Shown here piece by piece: positions 31,484 through 40,738 of a stretch of DNA of 64,000 bases; position 1 is the stretch's first letter; each line of letters opens with the position of its first letter. The stretch lies in contig JAPHRO010000021.1 in NCBI GenBank assembly GCA_026195895.1, positions 3,848 to 67,847 on the forward strand, written 5' to 3'. Below the pieces are notes generated by a model. It was not told the DNA's origin, made no database searches, and saw nothing but the letters and a program-made list of their open reading frames with translations. The stretch comes from Gammaproteobacteria bacterium. Lineage in GTDB: Bacteria > Pseudomonadota > Gammaproteobacteria > SZUA-229. The translations under genes and the position numbers were made by a program.

Positions 31484-32470
31484 TCAGTAACGGCTGTGCC
31501 AGCTAATATTAAAGTTTACATCGGGAGAGTAGCCAGACTGAATGTCTTCGGCAACGGCAATATCCAGACTGGAGTTGTTATCAAACAAAATAGTGCCACC
31601 AAAGCTAAGTTGAATAACGTCATCCAGTAAATCAAGCCCGGAGTCATAAACAGCGGAATGCGCGTCAAGCTGTACTTTTAGTAAAATTGGCCGCCAGGGA
31701 TGAAATTGCATACCCAGATTACCGAATACAGCCGTGTTTTTATGTTGCTCCTGCAGCAGCTCACTGTCCTGCATAAATAAGTAGCCCAGATTGCCATAAA
31801 ACCAGCTACTGTCGCCGGTGGAAAAGTCGGCGGCAATCCATAGCGCCAGGTCGCTGCCGTCGCTGCCACTAAGTTTTCGGCTATCACCGGTGGGTAATTT
31901 GATACTGGTCCAGTAGCTCAGGGCGTAGTCTTCTGTTGCGCTTAACTGGTAGCCTGCCTGGATAGATATATCACCTAAAGATGTGTGAGCTTGCTGGAAG
32001 TCGAGTATCTGATTGCCATTGTTTTGATAGTTGATAATTAGCTGATCACGTGGGAATTCAGGCCGAATATCTTCGGGCAGGTGCATGATGTCGTGATAAT
32101 TTTCGATCCATGCGTCGAGGAAACCGCCGCTGTGTCCAGTCACGGGCAATTCAAATCTAAGCATCCAGTTTTTGCTCAGGCTGACGTCATAGAGCAGGTT
32201 TAGCTGGTAACTTTCAATGTCAAGAAACAGCGATTCATTAGCTGTCTGTTGATCATTAATCGTGTTGCTGATATTGATTGATGAGATGAATCGGCTCTGG
32301 TTTTCATCCAGTATTCTGCCGGCAACCGGTAGCGGGAAGCCGTGGATCGAAACCAGTGGATTCTGGTCGCGGGTCAGCAAGGGGGCTACTTGTTCAGCGG
32401 CAATAGATTGACTGAACACAAACGTTGTAATAATGAGGCCGGCTATGTGCGCGTTTATTATTTTTTTCAT
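31484..32470 (-). CDS. hypothetical outer-membrane/secreted protein
   Basis: Signal peptide MKKIINAHIAGLIITTFVFSQSIAA. Beta-rich. No family recognised. Confidence 0.35.
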   Translation of the reverse strand: MKKIINAHIAGLIITTFVFSQSIAAEQVAPLLTRDQNPLVSIHGFPLPVAGRILDENQSRFISSINISNTINDQQTANESLFLDIESYQLNLLYDVSLSKNWMLRFELPVTGHSGGFLDAWIENYHDIMHLPEDIRPEFPRDQLIINYQNNGNQILDFQQAHTSLGDISIQAGYQLSATEDYALSYWTSIKLPTGDSRKLSGSDGSDLALWIAADFSTGDSSWFYGNLGYLFMQDSELLQEQHKNTAVFGNLGMQFHPWRPILLKVQLDAHSAVYDSGLDLLDDVIQLSFGGTILFDNNSSLDIAVAEDIQSGYSPDVNFNISWHSRY

Positions 32471-32495
32471 GCGCAGGCAACATAGCCCAGATCCC

Positions 32496-32541
32496 AAAAA
32501 TAAAAAAGCCCTGTAAAAAATAAATTTTACAGGGCTTTTTA
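32496..32541 (-). terminator. bidirectional rho-independent terminator downstream of the cytochrome c gene
   Basis: AAAGCCCTGTAAAA-N6-TTTTACAGGGCTTT flanked by A-run and T-run. Confidence 0.75.
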
Positions 32542-32561
32542 AATAAGCGTGTAATACCGGC

Positions 32562-32870
32562 TTATTTCATGCCGCTGAAGTATGCAGAAATATTAGCCAT
32601 GTCTGCGTCAGATAGAGGCTTGGCCATAGCATTCATAGTTGGGTCTTTACGTGTGCCGTCTTTGAAGGCTTTCATTTGCTTGGTCAGATAAGCTTCTTTC
32701 TGGCCTTTCAGGTTAGGGTAGGTAGGCATTTTGCCGATACCGTCATTACCGTGACATGCAGCACATGCAGCAGCTTTAGCTTTGCCTTTCGCAGCGTCGC
32801 CAGCAGCAACAGCATTTGCAGATACAGTCAGCGCAGTAGCGGCCAACAGGGCTAAGATTTGCTTCTTCAT
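32562..32870 (-). CDS. class I c-type cytochrome (c5/c552-like), periplasmic
   Basis: Signal peptide. Single CAACHG heme-binding motif. Distal Met (TMNAMAKPL). 102 aa. Confidence 0.8.
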   Translation of the reverse strand: MKKQILALLAATALTVSANAVAAGDAAKGKAKAAACAACHGNDGIGKMPTYPNLKGQKEAYLTKQMKAFKDGTRKDPTMNAMAKPLSDADMANISAYFSGMK

Positions 32871-33190
32871 CGTTTAACTCCCGGGTTAATTTGACAAATT
32901 GGTTAAAAATTCTGGCCGCAAATTGTGGCAGAGCAGGTATATAAAGTAAATTAATGTTTGTTTATGTGCTTCTGCTGTTTACTTATGGCTGGTGTATTAT
33001 TAGTAAAATCAGTTATTTACCAGTATTTTTAAGGGGCCGACTGGACAAGCATTTGATTTTATTCAAGGTTTTGACCGTCAAAAACTGCCTTAGTTTTTCC
33101 CTGTTTAAGGCTTTTTTAGGCTGTAAATCCCCTGCCAATCGGGTAAAGTGTGCAGCTCTTTGAATTTTGGCTCCAGGTGAGGATCAGAAC

Positions 33191-33883
33191 ATGGCAGATT
33201 ATAAGATCGCCCCATCCATCTTATCAGCAGATTTCGCTCGTCTCGGCGAAGAAGTGGACAATGTAATCAAATCGGGTGCAGATATCGTACATTTCGATGT
33301 AATGGACAATCACTATGTGCCTAACCTGACGATTGGTCCACTGGTATGTGATGCGCTGCGTAAGCATGGCGTAAGCGCAGAAATCGACGTGCATCTGATG
33401 GTAAAACCCGTCGATCGTATTATTCCTGATTTTGCTAAAGCCGGTGCCTCTTATATTACTTTCCATCCGGAAGGCTCTGAACATATTGACCGCAGCCTGC
33501 AAATGATTCGCGAGCTGGGCTGTAAATCGGGTCTGGTATTCAATCCGGCCACATCGCTGGATTGCCTGAAATATGTCATGGACAAAGTCGACATGATTCT
33601 GCTGATGTCGGTTAATCCCGGTTTTGGTGGTCAGTCGTTCATTCCTGCGACGCTGGATAAGTTGCGCGAAGCGCGTAAGCTGATCGATGCATCTGGTTAC
33701 GATATTCGTCTGGAAATTGACGGTGGCGTAAAAGTGGATAACATCCGCGAGATTGCCGAAGCTGGTGCCGACACCTTTGTTGCCGGTTCTGCTATTTTTG
33801 GCGCCAAAGGCGATAGCGATGCCAACGATTACGATACTGTAGTTGCTGCCATGCGCGCTGAGCTGGCAAAAGCGAAAAGTTAA
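33191..33883 (+). CDS. rpe: ribulose-phosphate 3-epimerase
   Basis: [19 protein letters not shown]-terminus and a TIM barrel. Start moved to the ATG after GAGGA. Confidence 0.9.
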
Positions 33884-33970
33884 CATTTAAGAATAGATGC
33901 GAAGCCTGTAAATCATTGCAGCTTCGCACTTGATGTTGATTTCCCCCCCCTATTTTGAACTGGAGTAGTA

Positions 33971-34648
33971 ATGGCGATTAAAAAGCCAGACATGGTATTA
34001 ATAGATGTGGACGGCACCCTGGTCGACAGCGTGCCGGATCTCGCGTATTGCGTTGATGAGATGCTGAAAGCACTGGATATGCCCGTGCGTGGCGAAGAAC
34101 GTGTGCGCCACTGGGTAGGTAATGGCGTTGAACGGCTGGTCAGGCGAGGTCTGATAAATGACCTGAATGGCGAACCGGATGAGGCCTTATTTGAAAAAGC
34201 GATACCAATTTTCAATGATCTGTATGCTGAAAATACGTCCAAACGCAGTTGCCTGTATCCCGGCGTAAAAGAAGCGCTTGAGTTTCTGAAGTCTACCGAT
34301 GTGAAAATTGGTTGCGTAACGAATAAAGCGGCGCAGTTTACCCTGCCAATTTTAAAAGATCTGGGGATTGCCGATTATTTTGAGATTGTAATTTGTGGCG
34401 ATACTCTGGAGAAGAAAAAACCCGATCCAATGCCGTTGTTATATGCAGCAGAAAAGCTGGGTGTTAAACCTGAGCAGTCATTGATGCTGGGTGATTCAAT
34501 GTCCGATGTGAAAGCGGCGCGTGCGGCGGGTTTTGATATTGTCTGCATGAGTTATGGCTATAATCACGGTGAAGATATTCGTGACTATAATCCAGATGCA
34601 GTTGTTGATTCTATGGATGAAGTTAAAACCGTCGTAAGCTGGAATTAA
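33971..34648 (+). CDS. gph: phosphoglycolate phosphatase (HAD superfamily)
   Basis: HAD motif I VLIDVDGTLVDS. Conserved position downstream of rpe. Confidence 0.8.
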   Translation: MAIKKPDMVLIDVDGTLVDSVPDLAYCVDEMLKALDMPVRGEERVRHWVGNGVERLVRRGLINDLNGEPDEALFEKAIPIFNDLYAENTSKRSCLYPGVKEALEFLKSTDVKIGCVTNKAAQFTLPILKDLGIADYFEIVICGDTLEKKKPDPMPLLYAAEKLGVKPEQSLMLGDSMSDVKAARAAGFDIVCMSYGYNHGEDIRDYNPDAVVDSMDEVKTVVSWN

Positions 34649-34779
34649 TAAACAATGTACTTACTTTTCAGACAGGCAGATATGCGTACATATACAAGCT
34701 GGCGATGGTCATAAGATAATTTCTGGCCCGGTGGCCGCTCGTCTGCTTTGTGTAATGTGAAAAATGTCTGGAAAGAATC

Positions 34780-36267
34780 ATGACCCCTGAAAAATTTGCT
34801 GAATTAAAACAACAAAATTACACCCATATACCGCTGGTCAAGGAAGTGCTGGCGGATCTGGATACGCCTTTAAGCACCTATCTAAAACTGGCCAATGCGC
34901 CGTATTCCTATTTGTTCGAATCCGTCCATGGTGGCGAGAAATGGGGGCGTTATTCGATTATTGGTTTGCCCTGTGTAACACGCATAAAAATTTTTGGTCA
35001 TAAAATTATTATCGAAAAGGGCTATGAGAATTCTGAAACCCTGGAAGTAGCCGACCCGCTTGCATGGATTGAGCAATATCAGCAGCAGTTTAATGTTGCC
35101 GAAATTGATGGCCTGCCAAAATTTACTGGCGGACTGGTTGGTTATTTTGGTTACGATACGATTCGTTACATCGAGCCGAAACTGGCCAAAGCAGAAAAGC
35201 CGGATGTACTGAAAACGCCGGACATTTTATTGATGTTGTCAGAAGAGGTGATTGTTTTTGATAACCTCAGCGGCAAGCTTTACCTGATCGTACAGGTGAA
35301 TCCCCGGCAGGCTGATGCCTATGAAATGGGCCAGCAAAGACTCAATCAGTTACACAAAACCTTGCATCAGTCTGTGCCCACCTATAAGCCTGCGGCAAAA
35401 AGTTACCAGATTACAGAAGATGATTTTGTTTCTGGCTTTACCGAGGACGGTTTCAAGCAAGCAGTCAGGAAAGCCAGGGAATATATTGTGGATGGCGATG
35501 TGATGCAGGTGGTGTTATCGCAACGCATGTCGATTCCCTACAATGCGGAACCACTGGATTTATATCGTTCCTTGCGGAGTTTGAATCCGTCGCCCTATAT
35601 GTATTATCTCGACCTGGATGACCATCATGTGGTGGGTTCATCGCCAGAAATCCTGGTGCGTCTGGAAGATAACGAAGTCACCGTGCGTCCGATTGCCGGT
35701 ACTCGGCCGCGTGGCAAAGATGAAGCGGACGATCTCGCACTGGAACAAGAATTGTTAGCGGACCCCAAAGAGCTGGCGGAGCATTTAATGCTGATTGATC
35801 TGGGCCGGAATGATGCCGGTCGAGTGAGTAAAATCGGCAGCGTGGAACTGACCGATAAAATGATTATCGAACGTTATTCCCATGTCATGCATATCGTGTC
35901 TAATGTGGTAGGCGAGCTCACTGAAAACATGACCGCAATGGATGTATTACGCGCGACTTTCCCAGCGGGTACGGTGAGTGGCGCACCGAAAATTCGTGCC
36001 ATGGAAATCATCGATGAGCTGGAACCGGTTAAGCGGGGTATCTATTCGGGTGCGGTCGGTTATTTATCGTGGAATGGCAATATGGATACTGCAATAGCAA
36101 TTCGTACTGCGGTGATCAAAGATAAAATTCTCAATATTCAGGCCGGTGCCGGTATTGTTTATGATTCGGTGCCGGAGAATGAATGGGCAGAGACCATGAA
36201 CAAAGGGCGCGCAGTTTTTCGTGCTGTCGCCATGGCTGAAGCCGGCCTGGATGGCTCTCATCGTTAA
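34780..36267 (+). CDS. trpE: anthranilate synthase component I
   Basis: Full-length TrpE-like protein of 495 aa with the LLADPKE...GAVGY chorismate-binding core. Confidence 0.9.
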
Positions 36268-36299
36268 CCATTAATACAGTTAAATTATTCGGAGTTGTT

Positions 36300-37103
36300 A
36301 TGAAAGCATTATGCTTGCGCATAGTGAACCACTCATTATTCGAAAAAGTCATCGTTGGTCTGATTTTACTGAATGGTGTGATTCTGGGTATGGAAACCTC
36401 TGCACACCTGGTGCAGCAATATGGGCAATTATTTGAATTGCTATCGGGTATTATTTTGCTGGTGTTTATCATCGAGGCAGCGATGAAAATCACCGCCGTG
36501 GCGCCGAAATTGAAGCTCTATTTTGGGTCTGGCTGGAACCTGTTTGATTTTAGTGTGGTGTTGCTATCGCTGGTACCATCGACCGGTGAATTTGCCATGA
36601 TTGCACGACTGGCGCGCTTGTTACGGGTCATGCGTCTGATCTCGACGATTCCAGAATTACGCCTGATAGTGTCTACCCTGGTACGTTCATTGCCGGGCAT
36701 GATGCATGTAATCATGTTGATGGCGGTGATCTTTTATATCTATGCGGTGGCCGGGTTCCATCTGTTTCACGAGCATGACCCGGAATTATGGGGTACGCTG
36801 GGTATTTCCCTGTTAACGCTGTTCAGGGTGGTTACCCTGGAAGACTGGACAGATGTCATGTATACCGCCATGGAAATGCATCCATTGAGCTGGATATTTT
36901 TTGTCAGCTTTGTGGTGATGGGTACCTTTGTTATTATTAATTTATTTATTGCGGTGGTGATTAATAATCTGGAAGAGGCCAAACAGGAAAGTCTGGCCGA
37001 ATTGCAGAAGCCGACCAGCAAAGATGAATTGCTGAAAGAACTGAAACAGACTCAGGATGCTTTGCAGCGACTACAGGTAAGAATGGAGAATGCATCGTCA
37101 TGA
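36300..37103 (+). CDS. voltage-gated ion channel, NaChBac/BacNav family (single 6-TM domain), filter LEDWTD
   Basis: Collinear with NaChBac. S4 segment [19 protein letters not shown], pore loop [17 protein letters not shown]6 and a C-terminal coiled coil. The stop overlaps the trpG start (ATGA). Confidence 0.75.
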
Positions 37104-37678
37104 TGTTAATGATTGATAACTATGATTCGTTCACTTATAACCTGGTGCAATATCTGGGCGAACTGGGTGCAGACGTTGTTGTCTATCGTAACGATCAGAT
37201 AACTATCGCCGATATAGAGAAATTAAATCCCGAACGGATTATGATTTCGCCGGGACCCTGCACGCCAAATGAGGCCGGTTTGTCGATGGCTGTCATCAGG
37301 CACTTTGCCGGTAAATTGCCCATACTGGGTGTGTGTCTTGGACACCAGAGTATCGGCCAGGTATTCGGTGGTAAAATTATTCACGCCAAACAGATTATGC
37401 ATGGCAAAACATCCATGATTCATCACAATAATCAGGGCGTGTTCAAGGGCCTGTCCAATCCATACGAGGCCACTCGATATCATTCGTTGGTAATCGAAAA
37501 AGAAAGTCTACCGGATTGTCTGGAAATAACCGCCTGGACTGAAAATCCCGATGGCAGCATCGATGAAATCATGGGTGTTAAACATAAAGAGCTGGCAGTA
37601 GAAGGTGTGCAGTTTCATCCTGAGTCCATACTTACGGAGCATGGACATGATCTACTTAAAAATTTTTTACAAATGTAA
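37100..37678 (+). CDS. trpG: anthranilate synthase component II (glutamine amidotransferase)
   Basis: GATase class I. The catalytic Cys is in GVCLGHQ and the His/Glu in QFHPES. Confidence 0.9.
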
Positions 37679-37698
37679 AAGACAAAGGTAATTCCATT

Positions 37699-38715
37699 AT
37701 GGATATGCAAACAGCAATCAAGACCGTTACAGAAAACAAAGATCTTAGTCGTGAGCAAATGACCGAGGTGATGAATCTGATCATGACCGGGCAGGCAACG
37801 GATTCCCAGATTGGTGGTTTTTTGATTGGCTTGCGTATGAAAGGGGAAAGTGTCGACGAGGTTGCTGCTGCGGCAAGCGTGATGCGTAAGCTATCCACTA
37901 AAGTGAATGCCCCGGATAAGAACCTGGTGGATACCTGCGGTACTGGCGGTGATGCATCCGGCAGTTTTAATATTTCTACCGCTGCCGTTTTTGTAGCCGC
38001 CGCGGCCGGTGCACATGTCGCCAAGCATGGTAATCGTTCAGTCTCCAGCAAGTCGGGCAGTGCCGATGTGCTGGAAACTGCGGGCGTTAATCTGAATTTA
38101 ACCCCGGAACAGGTATCGGAATGCATTCATAATGTAGGGGCTGGATTTCTATTTGCGATAAAGCATCATGGCGCGATGAAACATGCCATTGGTCCGAGAA
38201 AAGAAATGGGTGTGCGCACAATCTTCAATGTGCTGGGGCCATTAACCAATCCCGCGGGCGCGCCGAATCAGTTGATTGGTGTATTCAGTAACGACTGGGT
38301 GGAGCCACTGGCGCAGGTGCTGAAACAACTGGGCAGCCATCATGTTATGGTGGTGCATGCGGATGATGGTCTGGATGAAATTAGCGTCGCCAGCGAAACG
38401 CATGTGGCTGAGTTAAATAATGGTGAAATTCACACCTATACTATCAAACCTGAAGATTTTGGTATGCCACGCGCCAGCCTGGCTGATATTAAAGCGGTGG
38501 ATTCAGCGGCCAGTCTGGCAATGATTCAATCGGTTTTCAAAAACCAGGCCGGGCCGACCAAAGACATTGTTTGTCTTAATGCTGGTGCGGCAATTTATGT
38601 GGCGGGTATTACCGACTCGCTGGCTGAAGGTGTTAAAAAAGCTGAAGCAGTTATCGCCAGTGGCGCAGCAGCGAAAAAACTTGAAGCACTCATTCATTAT
38701 TCAAACAACTGTTAA
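37699..38715 (+). CDS. trpD: anthranilate phosphoribosyltransferase
   Basis: GTGGD motif ([17 protein letters not shown]). 338 aa. Confidence 0.9.
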
Positions 38716-38719
38716 CATT

Positions 38720-39520
38720 ATGAATAATAAAACACCTGATATTTTAAACAAAATTCTGCAACGTAAAGTTGAAGAAATCTCCGAAGCTTCAGCAAAAGAA
38801 AGTATAGAGGCTTTACGGCAGCGGGCGGATTCTGCACCGGCAGTGCGCGGCTTTATTCGTGCTATCGAAAAAAAGATTGCTGCTGGCCAGCCGGGAATTA
38901 TTGCAGAAATCAAAAAAGCCTCACCCAGTAAAGGTGTGATTCGAGAAAATTTCGTGCCGGAAGATATCGCCAAAAGCTATGAAAAACATGGTGCGACCTG
39001 TTTGTCGATATTAACGGACCGGGATTATTTTCAGGGAGCAGAAGAATATTTAATTCAGGCGCGTGCGGCGACTAAGCTGCCGGTTATTCGTAAAGATTTC
39101 ATTATTGATCCCTATCAGGTGTATGAAGCACGAGCCATGGGTGCAGATTGCATTTTGTTGATTGTGTCTGCGCTGGATGACAAACCGTTAAATGAATTGC
39201 TCGCATTAGCGCATGATTTAGATATGGATGTTTTAATGGAAGTACATGATCGAGACGAAATGCAGCGAGCCATCAATAGCGGCGCCAGGTTAATCGGCGT
39301 CAACAATCGTAATTTACGCACCTTTGAAGTCAGTCTGCAGAACACTTTAGCTATGCTGGATATGGTGCCTGCGGATCGTATTCTGGTCACCGAGAGCGGT
39401 ATTCATGTGCCGGCAGATGTGAAATTAATGCGTGATAATAATATCCATGCATTTCTGGTTGGCGAAGCCTTTATGCGCGCTGACGACCCGGGTGAAAAAC
39501 TGGCCGAGCTGTTTTTCTAG
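38720..39520 (+). CDS. trpC: indole-3-glycerol phosphate synthase
   Basis: IGPS TIM barrel ([22 protein letters not shown]). Start moved to the ATG at 38720 just after the trpD stop. Confidence 0.85.
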
Positions 39521-39550
39521 GATAATGCTTTAGGTTTTTTAAAAAAGCGT

Positions 39551-40189
39551 TTAGCGGGTGCCGTGCACGACAATGGTTTTACCGTGGGCGCTGATCAGGC
39601 CGTCTTCTTCCAGTTCTTTTAAAACACGACCGGCCATTTCCCGTGAACAGCCAACAATCTTGGCGATATCCTGGCGGGTGATTTTTATTTGCATGCCGTC
39701 GGGATGGGTCATGGCATCGGGCTGTTCACTCAGCTCCAGCAGCGTGCGCGCAATGCGGCCGGAAACATCGAGGAAAATCAGGTCGCGGACTTTCTGGCTG
39801 GTTTTGATTAGCCGATCAAAAATCTGGCCGGATAGCAGGAACAGAATTTCCGGGTCTTCATTGACCAGTTTGCGGAACTGGGTATAGGAAATTTCAGCAA
39901 TTTCGCAGGGTGATTTGGCCACAATCATGGCGCTGCGATCCAGGTTTTCTTTAAACAGTCCCGCTTCACCAAAGAAATCACCGCTGTTCAGATAGGCCAG
40001 GATAATTTCTGCGCCTTCATCGTTTTCCGTTTGTACGCTTACCGACCCCTTGATGATATAGTACAGGCTTTGGGGTTTATCCCCTTCGTGGATAATGTTT
40101 TTCTTGGCCGGATAGCTCTTGCGGTGGCAATGATTTAGCAACCGTTCCAGCGAAGGATTTGATGTATCAATTTTGGGCAACAAGCTCAT
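39551..40189 (-). CDS. crp: cAMP receptor protein family global regulator (CRP/Vfr)
   Basis: cNMP-binding domain plus an HTH that is nearly identical to E. coli CRP ([41 protein letters not shown]). Confidence 0.9.
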
Positions 40190-40321
40190 AAACGTTACTG
40201 TATTTTCCGTGAATCTTTAATTATCCTGCGATTATAGTGCATTCCGCCCTGCCACAAACGGGTGAATGGACTAATTAACGCAAATTAGTGACCAATCAGC
40301 AAGTTTTTTAGGGTGTAGTGT

Positions 40322-40738
40322 ATGAAAGCACGGGTGAAGTGGCTGGATAATATGACATTTGTGGGTGAATCGGGTAGTGGGCATTCCATTGTAATGGATG
40401 GTGCAGTTGATAGTGGTGGCCGCAATCTGGCCGCTCGACCCATGGAAATGGTACTTATGGGCATGGGGGGCTGTACGGCTTTTGATGTGGTTTTAATACT
40501 GAAACGGCAGCGTCAGCCGATCGAGGACTGTATTGTTGAGCTGTCAGCAGAGCGTGCGGAGGAGGTACCTAAAGTATTTACCAGAATCCACGTGCACTAT
40601 GTCATCAAAGGCAAGGGGCTAAATGAGAAGAAAGTGGCAAAAGCTGTTGAATTAACAGCGGAAAAATATTGCTCAGTGTCGATCATGCTGGCCGCAACCG
40701 TCGAAGTCAGCCATGATTTCGAGATTATCGAAGATTAA
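40322..40738 (+). CDS. OsmC family protein (YhfA-like)
   Basis: OsmC/Ohr fold of 138 aa. Divergent from crp, as yhfA is next to crp in enterics and PA0653 is next to vfr. Confidence 0.7.
   Translation: MKARVKWLDNMTFVGESGSGHSIVMDGAVDSGGRNLAARPMEMVLMGMGGCTAFDVVLILKRQRQPIEDCIVELSAERAEEVPKVFTRIHVHYVIKGKGLNEKKVAKAVELTAEKYCSVSIMLAATVEVSHDFEIIED

Follow-up and report, generated by a model that had tools for sequence, protein, structure and literature searches.

Little is known of what voltage-gated channels do for bacteria. Among the described BacNav channels, those closest to the one analysed here form the AnclNav ("ancestor-like BacNav") group with acidic selectivity filters, which was defined by Shimomura et al. 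2020 (PMC7041947). NavPp of Plesiocystis pacifica, with the filter TLEDWTD, carries a Na+ current with a low-affinity block by extracellular Ca2+ and passes some Ca2+ together with Na+, and the Ca2+ block persisted in the mutants NavPp-T6S (TLEDWSD) and NavPp-T6A (TLEDWAD) (PMC7041947). TLEDWSD in NavAb and TLEDWAD in NaChBac are engineered Ca2+-selective filters, the Ca2+ selectivity of CavMr depends on a Gly at filter position 4, and the predicted ancestral BacNav filter is TLEDWTD (PMC7041947). Two further reports concern tryptophan operons: the Pseudomonas trpE-trpG intergenic region is a consistent site of R-type pyocin/tailocin clusters (PMC4684702), and trp operons interrupted by genes foreign to the pathway have been described before, the inserts being considered as potential "morons" (PMC2395257). 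We analysed a channel gene located between trpE and trpG in a 64,000-nucleotide stretch of gammaproteobacterial DNA (assembly GCA_026195895.1, contig JAPHRO010000021.1, positions 3,848 to 67,847; hereafter the window). We consider it likely that this gene encodes an AnclNav cation channel, probably with NavPp-like Na+ conduction, and that it is an accessory cistron of the trpE-trpG junction which has been inherited with the operon and repeatedly deleted, and which has no role in tryptophan synthesis. In our literature searches (BacNav with trpE or operon; AnclNav) we met no paper that describes such a channel gene, BacNav or AnclNav, within a trp operon, and the trp-operon location of the channel is not reported in the AnclNav paper (PMC7041947).

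From its sequence the window channel is a member of the published AnclNav group. The open reading frame (ORF) starts with the ATG at 36300 and encodes 267 amino acids (aa), of which residues 11-230 match profile positions 1-239 of 241 of the Pfam family Ion_trans (expectation value (E) 4.5e-45), a full-length match to one six-transmembrane (6-TM) domain in a protein of the ~260-300-aa class. A phmmer search against the PDB sequences gave NaChBac (6vwx) with E 1.5e-54 and NavAb-type chains with ~1e-50. These scores, together with four arginines in segment S4, bear out the preliminary description of this DNA, which had read the gene as a single-domain 6-TM voltage-gated channel. Its assignment to the NaChBac family holds at the level of the superfamily and fails at the level of the family. 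Against the reference sequences taken from the sequence file of Shimomura et al. 2020 (PMC7041947), the window protein is 68% identical to the AnclNav of M. ferrooxydans PV-1 and 61% to that of N. halophilus Nc4, versus 38-40% to the canonical BacNavs NaChBac and NavAb and 35-41% to all the canonical BacNavs compared; the AnclNavs NavPp and CavMr are both at 37%. The neighbour-joining tree places the window channel inside the AnclNav part and not with the Bacillus or NavAb-like groups.

The likeness to M. ferrooxydans PV-1 and the AnclNav group covers the filter TLEDWTD, a post-filter stretch that is one residue shorter, and the position in the tree. NaChBac and NavAb share with the window channel the 6-TM architecture, the four S4 arginines, the TLExW pore and the C-terminal helix, but their filters are TLESWAS and TLESWSM and they belong to separate phylogenetic groups. 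The window filter is TLESW-like with extra acidic residues, as AnclNav filters are, and since 79 of 81 relatives have TLEDWTD it is the norm of the group and no peculiarity of this gene. The AnclNav subclade of the window channel is without the ~21-residue loop between P2 and S6 that is present in NavPp, CavMr and Coraliomargarita. There are more than 6,400 homologues, 67-88% identical among the best matches listed and 70-88% among the nearest, in Gammaproteobacteria, Nitrospirales, Zetaproteobacteria and others. The short-loop TLEDWTD subclade is thus abundant.

The voltage sensor and the pore agree with those of the characterised channels in an alignment with NaChBac and NavAb, for which we used sequences that are exact matches to 6vwx_A and 5yua_A. 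The S4 string (residues 103-121) and the 16-residue pore string (residues 173-188) quoted in the preliminary description are both present in the translation. Arginines stand at every third position of S4 (R103, R106, R109 and R112), and these four, R121, and the counter-charges and hydrophobic plug residue (F56, E59, D83, N25 and E32) are invariant relative to NaChBac and NavAb and across 50 homologues. T179, L180, E181 and W183 of the TLExW motif align with both reference channels. Asp182 is aligned with Ser192 of NaChBac and Ser178 of NavAb, which is filter position 4; Asp185 is position 7 in the published numbering, where the gap placement by MAFFT is ambiguous, the window channel being one residue shorter directly after the filter. 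Both aspartates are therefore filter residues, as had been claimed, with this ambiguity at position 7. The AlphaFold2 monomer model built from the 50 homologues is weak (mean predicted local distance difference test 63.6, predicted template modelling score 0.43) and was used for secondary structure and a coarse fold match; at this low confidence it has the all-helical S1-S6/P1/P2 layout and a C-terminal helix at residues 241-266, and its top Foldseek matches are NavAb, CavAb and NavMs. The gene product would be a functional homotetrameric voltage-gated cation channel of the AnclNav group with the usual filter of that group.

We predict that the window channel most likely conducts Na+, is blocked by extracellular Ca2+ and is not Ca2+-selective, reasoning from NavPp, which is the one TLEDWTD channel that has been measured. 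The prediction is made because the seven-residue filter of NavPp is identical, because the two channels share 15 consecutive identical residues over P1, filter and P2, and because filter position 4 is an Asp. CavMr of Meiothermus ruber, a native prokaryotic Ca2+ channel, is also an AnclNav with Asp at filter position 7, but its filter TLEGWVD has a Gly at position 4 where the window channel has Asp182. The preliminary description had predicted a Ca2+-permeable channel, which conflicts with NavPp, the nearest experiment. Its premise, that extra Asp residues bring Ca2+ permeability, stands for engineered NavAb and NaChBac and falls in the AnclNav background, where NavPp and its T6S and T6A mutants are Ca2+-blocked.

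That this is a BacNav-type channel which, owing to its two additional aspartates, is natively permeable to or selective for Ca2+ we regard as unlikely, although the proposal has several observations on its side. D182 and D185 do occupy filter positions 4 and 7, the engineered filters TLEDWSD (NavAb) and TLEDWAD (NaChBac) are Ca2+-selective (PMC7041947), some Ca2+ passes NavPp along with Na+ (PMC7041947), and the window channel is without the long P2-S6 loop of NavPp, so that its outer vestibule is canonical in length. The evidence on the other side comes from channels of its own group. NavPp, with the identical filter and near-identical P1/P2 flanks, is Na+-permeable and Ca2+-blocked, the block is kept in NavPp-T6S and NavPp-T6A, and AnclNav Ca2+ selectivity needs the position-4 Gly that the window channel does not have (all PMC7041947). 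The window channel also groups with the AnclNavs and not with the NavAb and NaChBac backbones. Several points weigh in turn against the Na+ prediction: NavPp is only 37% identical overall to the window channel, its ~21-residue loop is absent from the window channel, and the same filter types give Ca2+ selectivity in NavAb and NaChBac (PMC7041947). Of the short-loop AnclNavs, those of T. turnerae and H. elongata were tried and neither produced a current (PMC7041947), and hence the short-loop subclade has no measured member.

The channel gene is not a constant part of the trp operon among relatives. Two sets of loci were compared: 80 from species-representative genomes, retrieved by a search with the channel, and 80 of a metagenome scan with TrpE as query, the latter chosen irrespective of the channel. 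The order trpE-channel-trpG was found in six close relatives (L001-L005 and L020), whose channels are 76-82% identical to that of the window, and 69 of the 80 channel-query loci have the channel in lineage-specific contexts unrelated to trp, with xseA and an M23 peptidase gene 5' of the channel in other Gammaproteobacteria, a parvulin gene 3' of it in another group and a LOG-type gene in Zetaproteobacteria. In the TrpE-query scan, the 27 loci with at least 77% TrpE identity divide into 10 with the channel and 17 with a direct trpE-trpG junction. The 53 loci below 77% comprise 29 with a ~336-aa secreted protein, 14 with a direct junction, five with a PDDEXK_3 gene and five undetermined. Three relatives with TrpE 80-84% identical, one of them the endosymbiont of Galathealinum brachiosum, share this synteny, but in them trpG comes straight after trpE and no channel lies there. 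The gene order in the channel-less relatives is DUF3187, cytochrome c, rpe, gph, trpE, trpG, trpD, trpC, crp and OsmC. Synteny extends over the clade from DUF3187 as far as OsmC/DUF885/TerB, so that within ~10 kb nothing but the channel varies. The gene had been described as an integral cistron of the operon, which is overstated because close relatives with the same synteny are without it, one of them by demonstrable deletion.

Two other observations were made in the channel-query loci. In 28-29 Nitrospirales genomes (L015-L048), an FTCD_N+FTCD gene and a CBS-domain gene lie ~0.1-2 kb 5' of the channel on the same strand, with a DsrE_2 gene on the opposite strand, a conserved context unrelated to trp. 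Two gammaproteobacterial metagenome-assembled genomes encode a divergent channel paralogue, 40% identical, ~2.5 kb 5' of the AnclNav gene (L034, 2893-3522; L039, 2890-3519).

The simplest history, judged from the sequences, would be that the ancestor of the window's clade received the gene once, that it then descended vertically together with the operon, and that it was lost several times. In the TrpE tree, the basal subclade is all channel-bearing and the crown mixes channel-bearing and channel-less loci; L004 (with the channel) and L095 (without) form a sister pair separated by very short branches. Between trpE and trpG, L095 has an 85-nt spacer that matches the terminal ~83 nt of the L004 channel gene at 88% identity and includes an in-frame stop. 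Because its spacer keeps the channel 3' end, L095 lost the channel by deletion. L093, L099 and L090 retain ~25-30 nt from the end of the channel gene, among them the GGAGAA box, which is the Shine-Dalgarno sequence of trpG, and the remaining channel-less loci have trpE-trpG spacers of 5-6 nt. The channels of the crown (group A) and of the basal subclade (group B) are supported in 97/100 and 100/100 bootstraps, respectively, and the two groups together are monophyletic in 83/100, in agreement with the TrpE tree. All these trees are neighbour-joining trees on saturated data, which counts against the history given here, and "empty" and "full" alleles may alternatively have been exchanged by homologous recombination. 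Where the channel is retained it is under purifying selection: its ratio of nonsynonymous to synonymous substitution rates (dN/dS) is 0.06-0.09 versus 0.03-0.06 for trpE, as calculated from three channel pairs only because dS is saturated in most pairs.

Unrelated genes have settled at the trpE-trpG junction time and again. The Pseudomonas R/F pyocin/tailocin clusters occupy the same junction as the window channel. They are self-regulated multi-gene clusters, whereas the window has one co-oriented gene fused into the translation signals of the operon. The genes that flank the Pseudomonas pyocins lie in the order rpe-gph-trpE before the insertion and trpGDC-vfr after it, the same backbone as in the window, with a divergent crp/vfr-like gene. 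The channel would be an accessory cistron at the trpE-trpG junction of the rpe-gph-trpE-trpGDC cluster in a gammaproteobacterial lineage related to sulfur-oxidising symbionts, and its position most likely reflects a site that tolerates insertions, occupied by different cargo in related lineages, and not a role in tryptophan synthesis. The placement had been called unexplained; it is partly accounted for by this recurrent use of the junction.

The other genes found at or near this junction are as follows. A conserved ~336-aa protein with an N-terminal signal-like segment and no Pfam match is encoded between trpE and trpG in 29 loci in all, where TrpE is 72-76% identical (e.g. L131, 5492-6556; also L114, L120, L126, L133 and L142). 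Five loci (L125, 5474-5976; L132, L135, L159 and L162) have a small PDDEXK_3-family gene (E 3.6e-43) at the same place. The basal subclade with the channel also has an MFS_1 transporter gene, placed between trpG and trpD (L085, 9065-10285; L109, L111 and L112), and the operon of that subclade thus holds two membrane-protein passengers, the MFS_1 gene and the channel, both inserted.

It is a point against a channel without any tie to tryptophan that Arenicellales, with TrpE only 63-65% identical to that of the window, also have the channel directly after trpE. In L052, L055, L060 and L074 the channel, likewise 63-65% identical, starts 3-25 bp after trpE, and the channel-trpG gap is 19-22 bp in two of the four loci. 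The Arenicellales channels are monophyletic in 100/100 neighbour-joining bootstraps and were joined with those of the window's clade in 2/100. They could represent a second independent capture, and hence selection for linkage; one ancient insertion with relocation and loss elsewhere fits as well, and neighbour-joining on saturated data does not decide between the two. Some of these operons also differ downstream: in L052 a phosphoesterase (Metallophos) gene on the minus strand comes after trpE and the channel, and the downstream part of the locus showed no trpG, and in L055 (6814-8189) and L074 (6820-8195) trpG is directly followed by trpC with no trpD between.

The Arenicellales loci are the starting point of a functional explanation, in which the channel is kept by trpE since cells short of tryptophan benefit from expressing it together with anthranilate synthase, for instance if the starvation response is thereby coupled to membrane potential or Na+ cycling. 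We find this quite unlikely. The arrangement does occur in two distant lineages whose channels are not sister groups in the bootstrap, the junctions are tight in both (the ATGA overlap in the window's clade, the short distance after trpE in Arenicellales), L052 keeps the trpE-channel pair though trpG is not downstream, purifying selection on the channel is strong, and the whole unit stands behind a leader with Trp codons. The same site is however without the channel in 17 of the 27 close relatives, at least one of which lost it by deletion, the junction carries unrelated cargo in sister lineages and in Pseudomonas, and 69 of the 80 channel loci are in unrelated contexts. The literature searches found no biochemical link of the channel to tryptophan synthesis, and we know of none between such a channel and this pathway.

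Our preferred explanation, the accessory cistron, agrees with the anatomy of the operon, which is collected in Table 1. The Pfam-confirmed order on the plus strand is rpe, gph (HAD), trpE, channel, trpG, trpD and trpC, with a crp-family gene on the minus strand. Further upstream, DUF3187 and small cytochrome c genes lie 5' of rpe on the minus strand (window 31484-32870), as identified from the Pfam labels of the syntenic genes in L081-L085.

Table 1. Features of the trp operon and of the channel gene in the window.
Feature	Position	Strand	Basis or remark
Putative trp leader peptide, 19 aa, MYLLFRQADMRTYTSWRWS and stop	34655..34714	+	Small ORF 5' of trpE
trpE (anthranilate synthase component I)	34780..36267	+	Pfam Chorismate_bind E 1.5e-96, Anth_synt_I_N E 3.7e-35
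trpE-channel spacer, 32 bp	36268..36299	+	GGAG Shine-Dalgarno sequence 6 nt 5' of the channel ATG
AnclNav-type single-domain voltage-gated cation channel, 267 aa	36300..37103	+	Pfam, PDB match, AnclNav identity, fold search
S4 voltage sensor, residues 103-121	36606..36662	+	Arg at 103, 106, 109 and 112
Selectivity filter TLEDWTD, residues 179-185	36834..36854	+	Aligned with TLESWAS (NaChBac) and TLESWSM (NavAb)
C-terminal helix, residues 241-266 (putative coiled-coil segment)	37020..37097	+	Predicted helix
ATGA overlap of channel stop and trpG start	37100..37103	+	Sequence reading
trpG (anthranilate synthase glutamine amidotransferase)	37100..37678	+	Pfam GATase E 1.2e-62
trpD	37699..38715	+	Pfam Glycos_transf_3 E 1.6e-95
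trpC	38720..39520	+	Pfam IGPS E 7.3e-97

The position of the channel after trpE is as first described, the distance being one base pair less than the 33 bp given there. The overlap of its stop with the trpG start is confirmed: the channel TGA (37101-37103) and the trpG ATG (37100-37102) are read in tcATGAtg, and the ATGA is kept in 7/7 loci (the window, L001-L005 and L020). The trpG Shine-Dalgarno sequence GGAGAA lies 11 nt 5' of the trpG ATG, inside the last ~25 nt of the segment that encodes the channel helix, in 7/7 channel-bearing relatives, and the box also survives in the channel-less L095, L093, L099 and L090. The 3' end of the channel gene would thereby supply the ribosome-binding site of trpG, and these signals suggest translational coupling of the channel and trpG. 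A consensus scan found no promoter-like or terminator-like site at the trpE-channel or channel-trpG junction. The scan supports the earlier statement that the channel is co-oriented with the trp genes, overlaps trpG and is not isolated by a promoter or terminator; the gene shares strand and translational signals with its neighbours. The channel, which has its own Shine-Dalgarno sequence, is most likely co-transcribed from the trpE transcript; that this is argued from promoter and terminator consensus matches only is a point against our explanation.

The channel could alternatively be an independent transcription unit between trpE and trpG with its own promoter near the end of the trpE coding sequence. 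Inside trpE, at 35834-35861, there is a weak match to a sigma-70-like site (9/12) that would fit such a promoter, as would the separate Shine-Dalgarno sequence of the channel. We consider this very unlikely, as promoter-like matches across the region occur at chance frequency (13 found versus 13.0 expected from shuffles), no terminator-like site follows trpE or the channel, and the stop/start overlap leaves no room for termination before trpG. In the channel-less relatives with spacers of 5-6 nt, moreover, trpG must use the trpE transcript.

A putative leader peptide with Trp codons precedes trpE and is the likely entry point for regulation of the transcription unit with the channel. The putative leader peptide ends in W-R-W (WW in more distant lineages) in most relatives, whether the channel is present or absent, and TGGCGATGG is unchanged throughout the 12/12 leaders aligned. 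In 12/12, the opening ~28 nt of this ORF (TTTTCAGACA) show complementarity to the ~28 nt that precede the trpE ATG (TGTCTGGAAAG), with duplex energies of -10.6 to -20.8 kcal/mol in a pairwise duplex test in which at most 1% of the shuffles were as good. An Rfam scan of 32800-40400 with E<=1 gave no family and no match to a trp leader model. No consensus structure came out of RNAalifold for the 12 leader regions, for which the poor alignment of their middle part is the probable reason. We speculate that there may be an undescribed Trp attenuator or translational switch at window 34655-34782. The operon would then be controlled by tryptophan supply, and the channel would inherit that control by being read from the trpE transcript.

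A few simpler explanations of the gene were rejected. It is not a chance ORF, given its Ion_trans score, PDB matches, number of homologues and dN/dS; it is not a pseudogene or decaying insert, the ORF being intact in more than 20 loci with an invariant filter and low dN/dS; and it is not the cargo of a mobile element, since no transposase, integrase or repeats adjoin it. A search for insertion-scar repeats around the gene gave only short two-copy matches of chance quality. The channel is compositionally native, with a guanine-plus-cytosine (GC) content of 0.456 versus 0.463 for the window; no compositional sign of recent transfer was found in the channel, whose GC at third codon positions is somewhat higher (0.55) and uninformative. 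No second copy of the channel was found within the window.

If a channel is built into an operon for amino-acid biosynthesis, downstream of a leader with Trp codons, this would give one of the few clues to the conditions of its expression. The promise of this locus is lowered by its being an ordinary AnclNav with the standard filter, dispensable in close relatives, at a junction that collects unrelated genes. The recurrence in Arenicellales is a hint of non-random linkage, and is the sole evidence of that kind in our analysis. It seems highly improbable to us that the channel was taken up beside trpE on two or more occasions, in Arenicellales as well as in the window's clade, because a voltage-gated Na+/Ca2+-sensing channel is adaptive under the tryptophan attenuator. 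If this were true, limitation of charged tRNA-Trp would directly alter membrane excitability or Na+ cycling in marine sulfur-cycle bacteria. Apart from this, the series of channel-bearing and channel-less operons, together with the deletion remnant, is a clean natural example of a passenger gene entering the translation initiation region of its neighbour.

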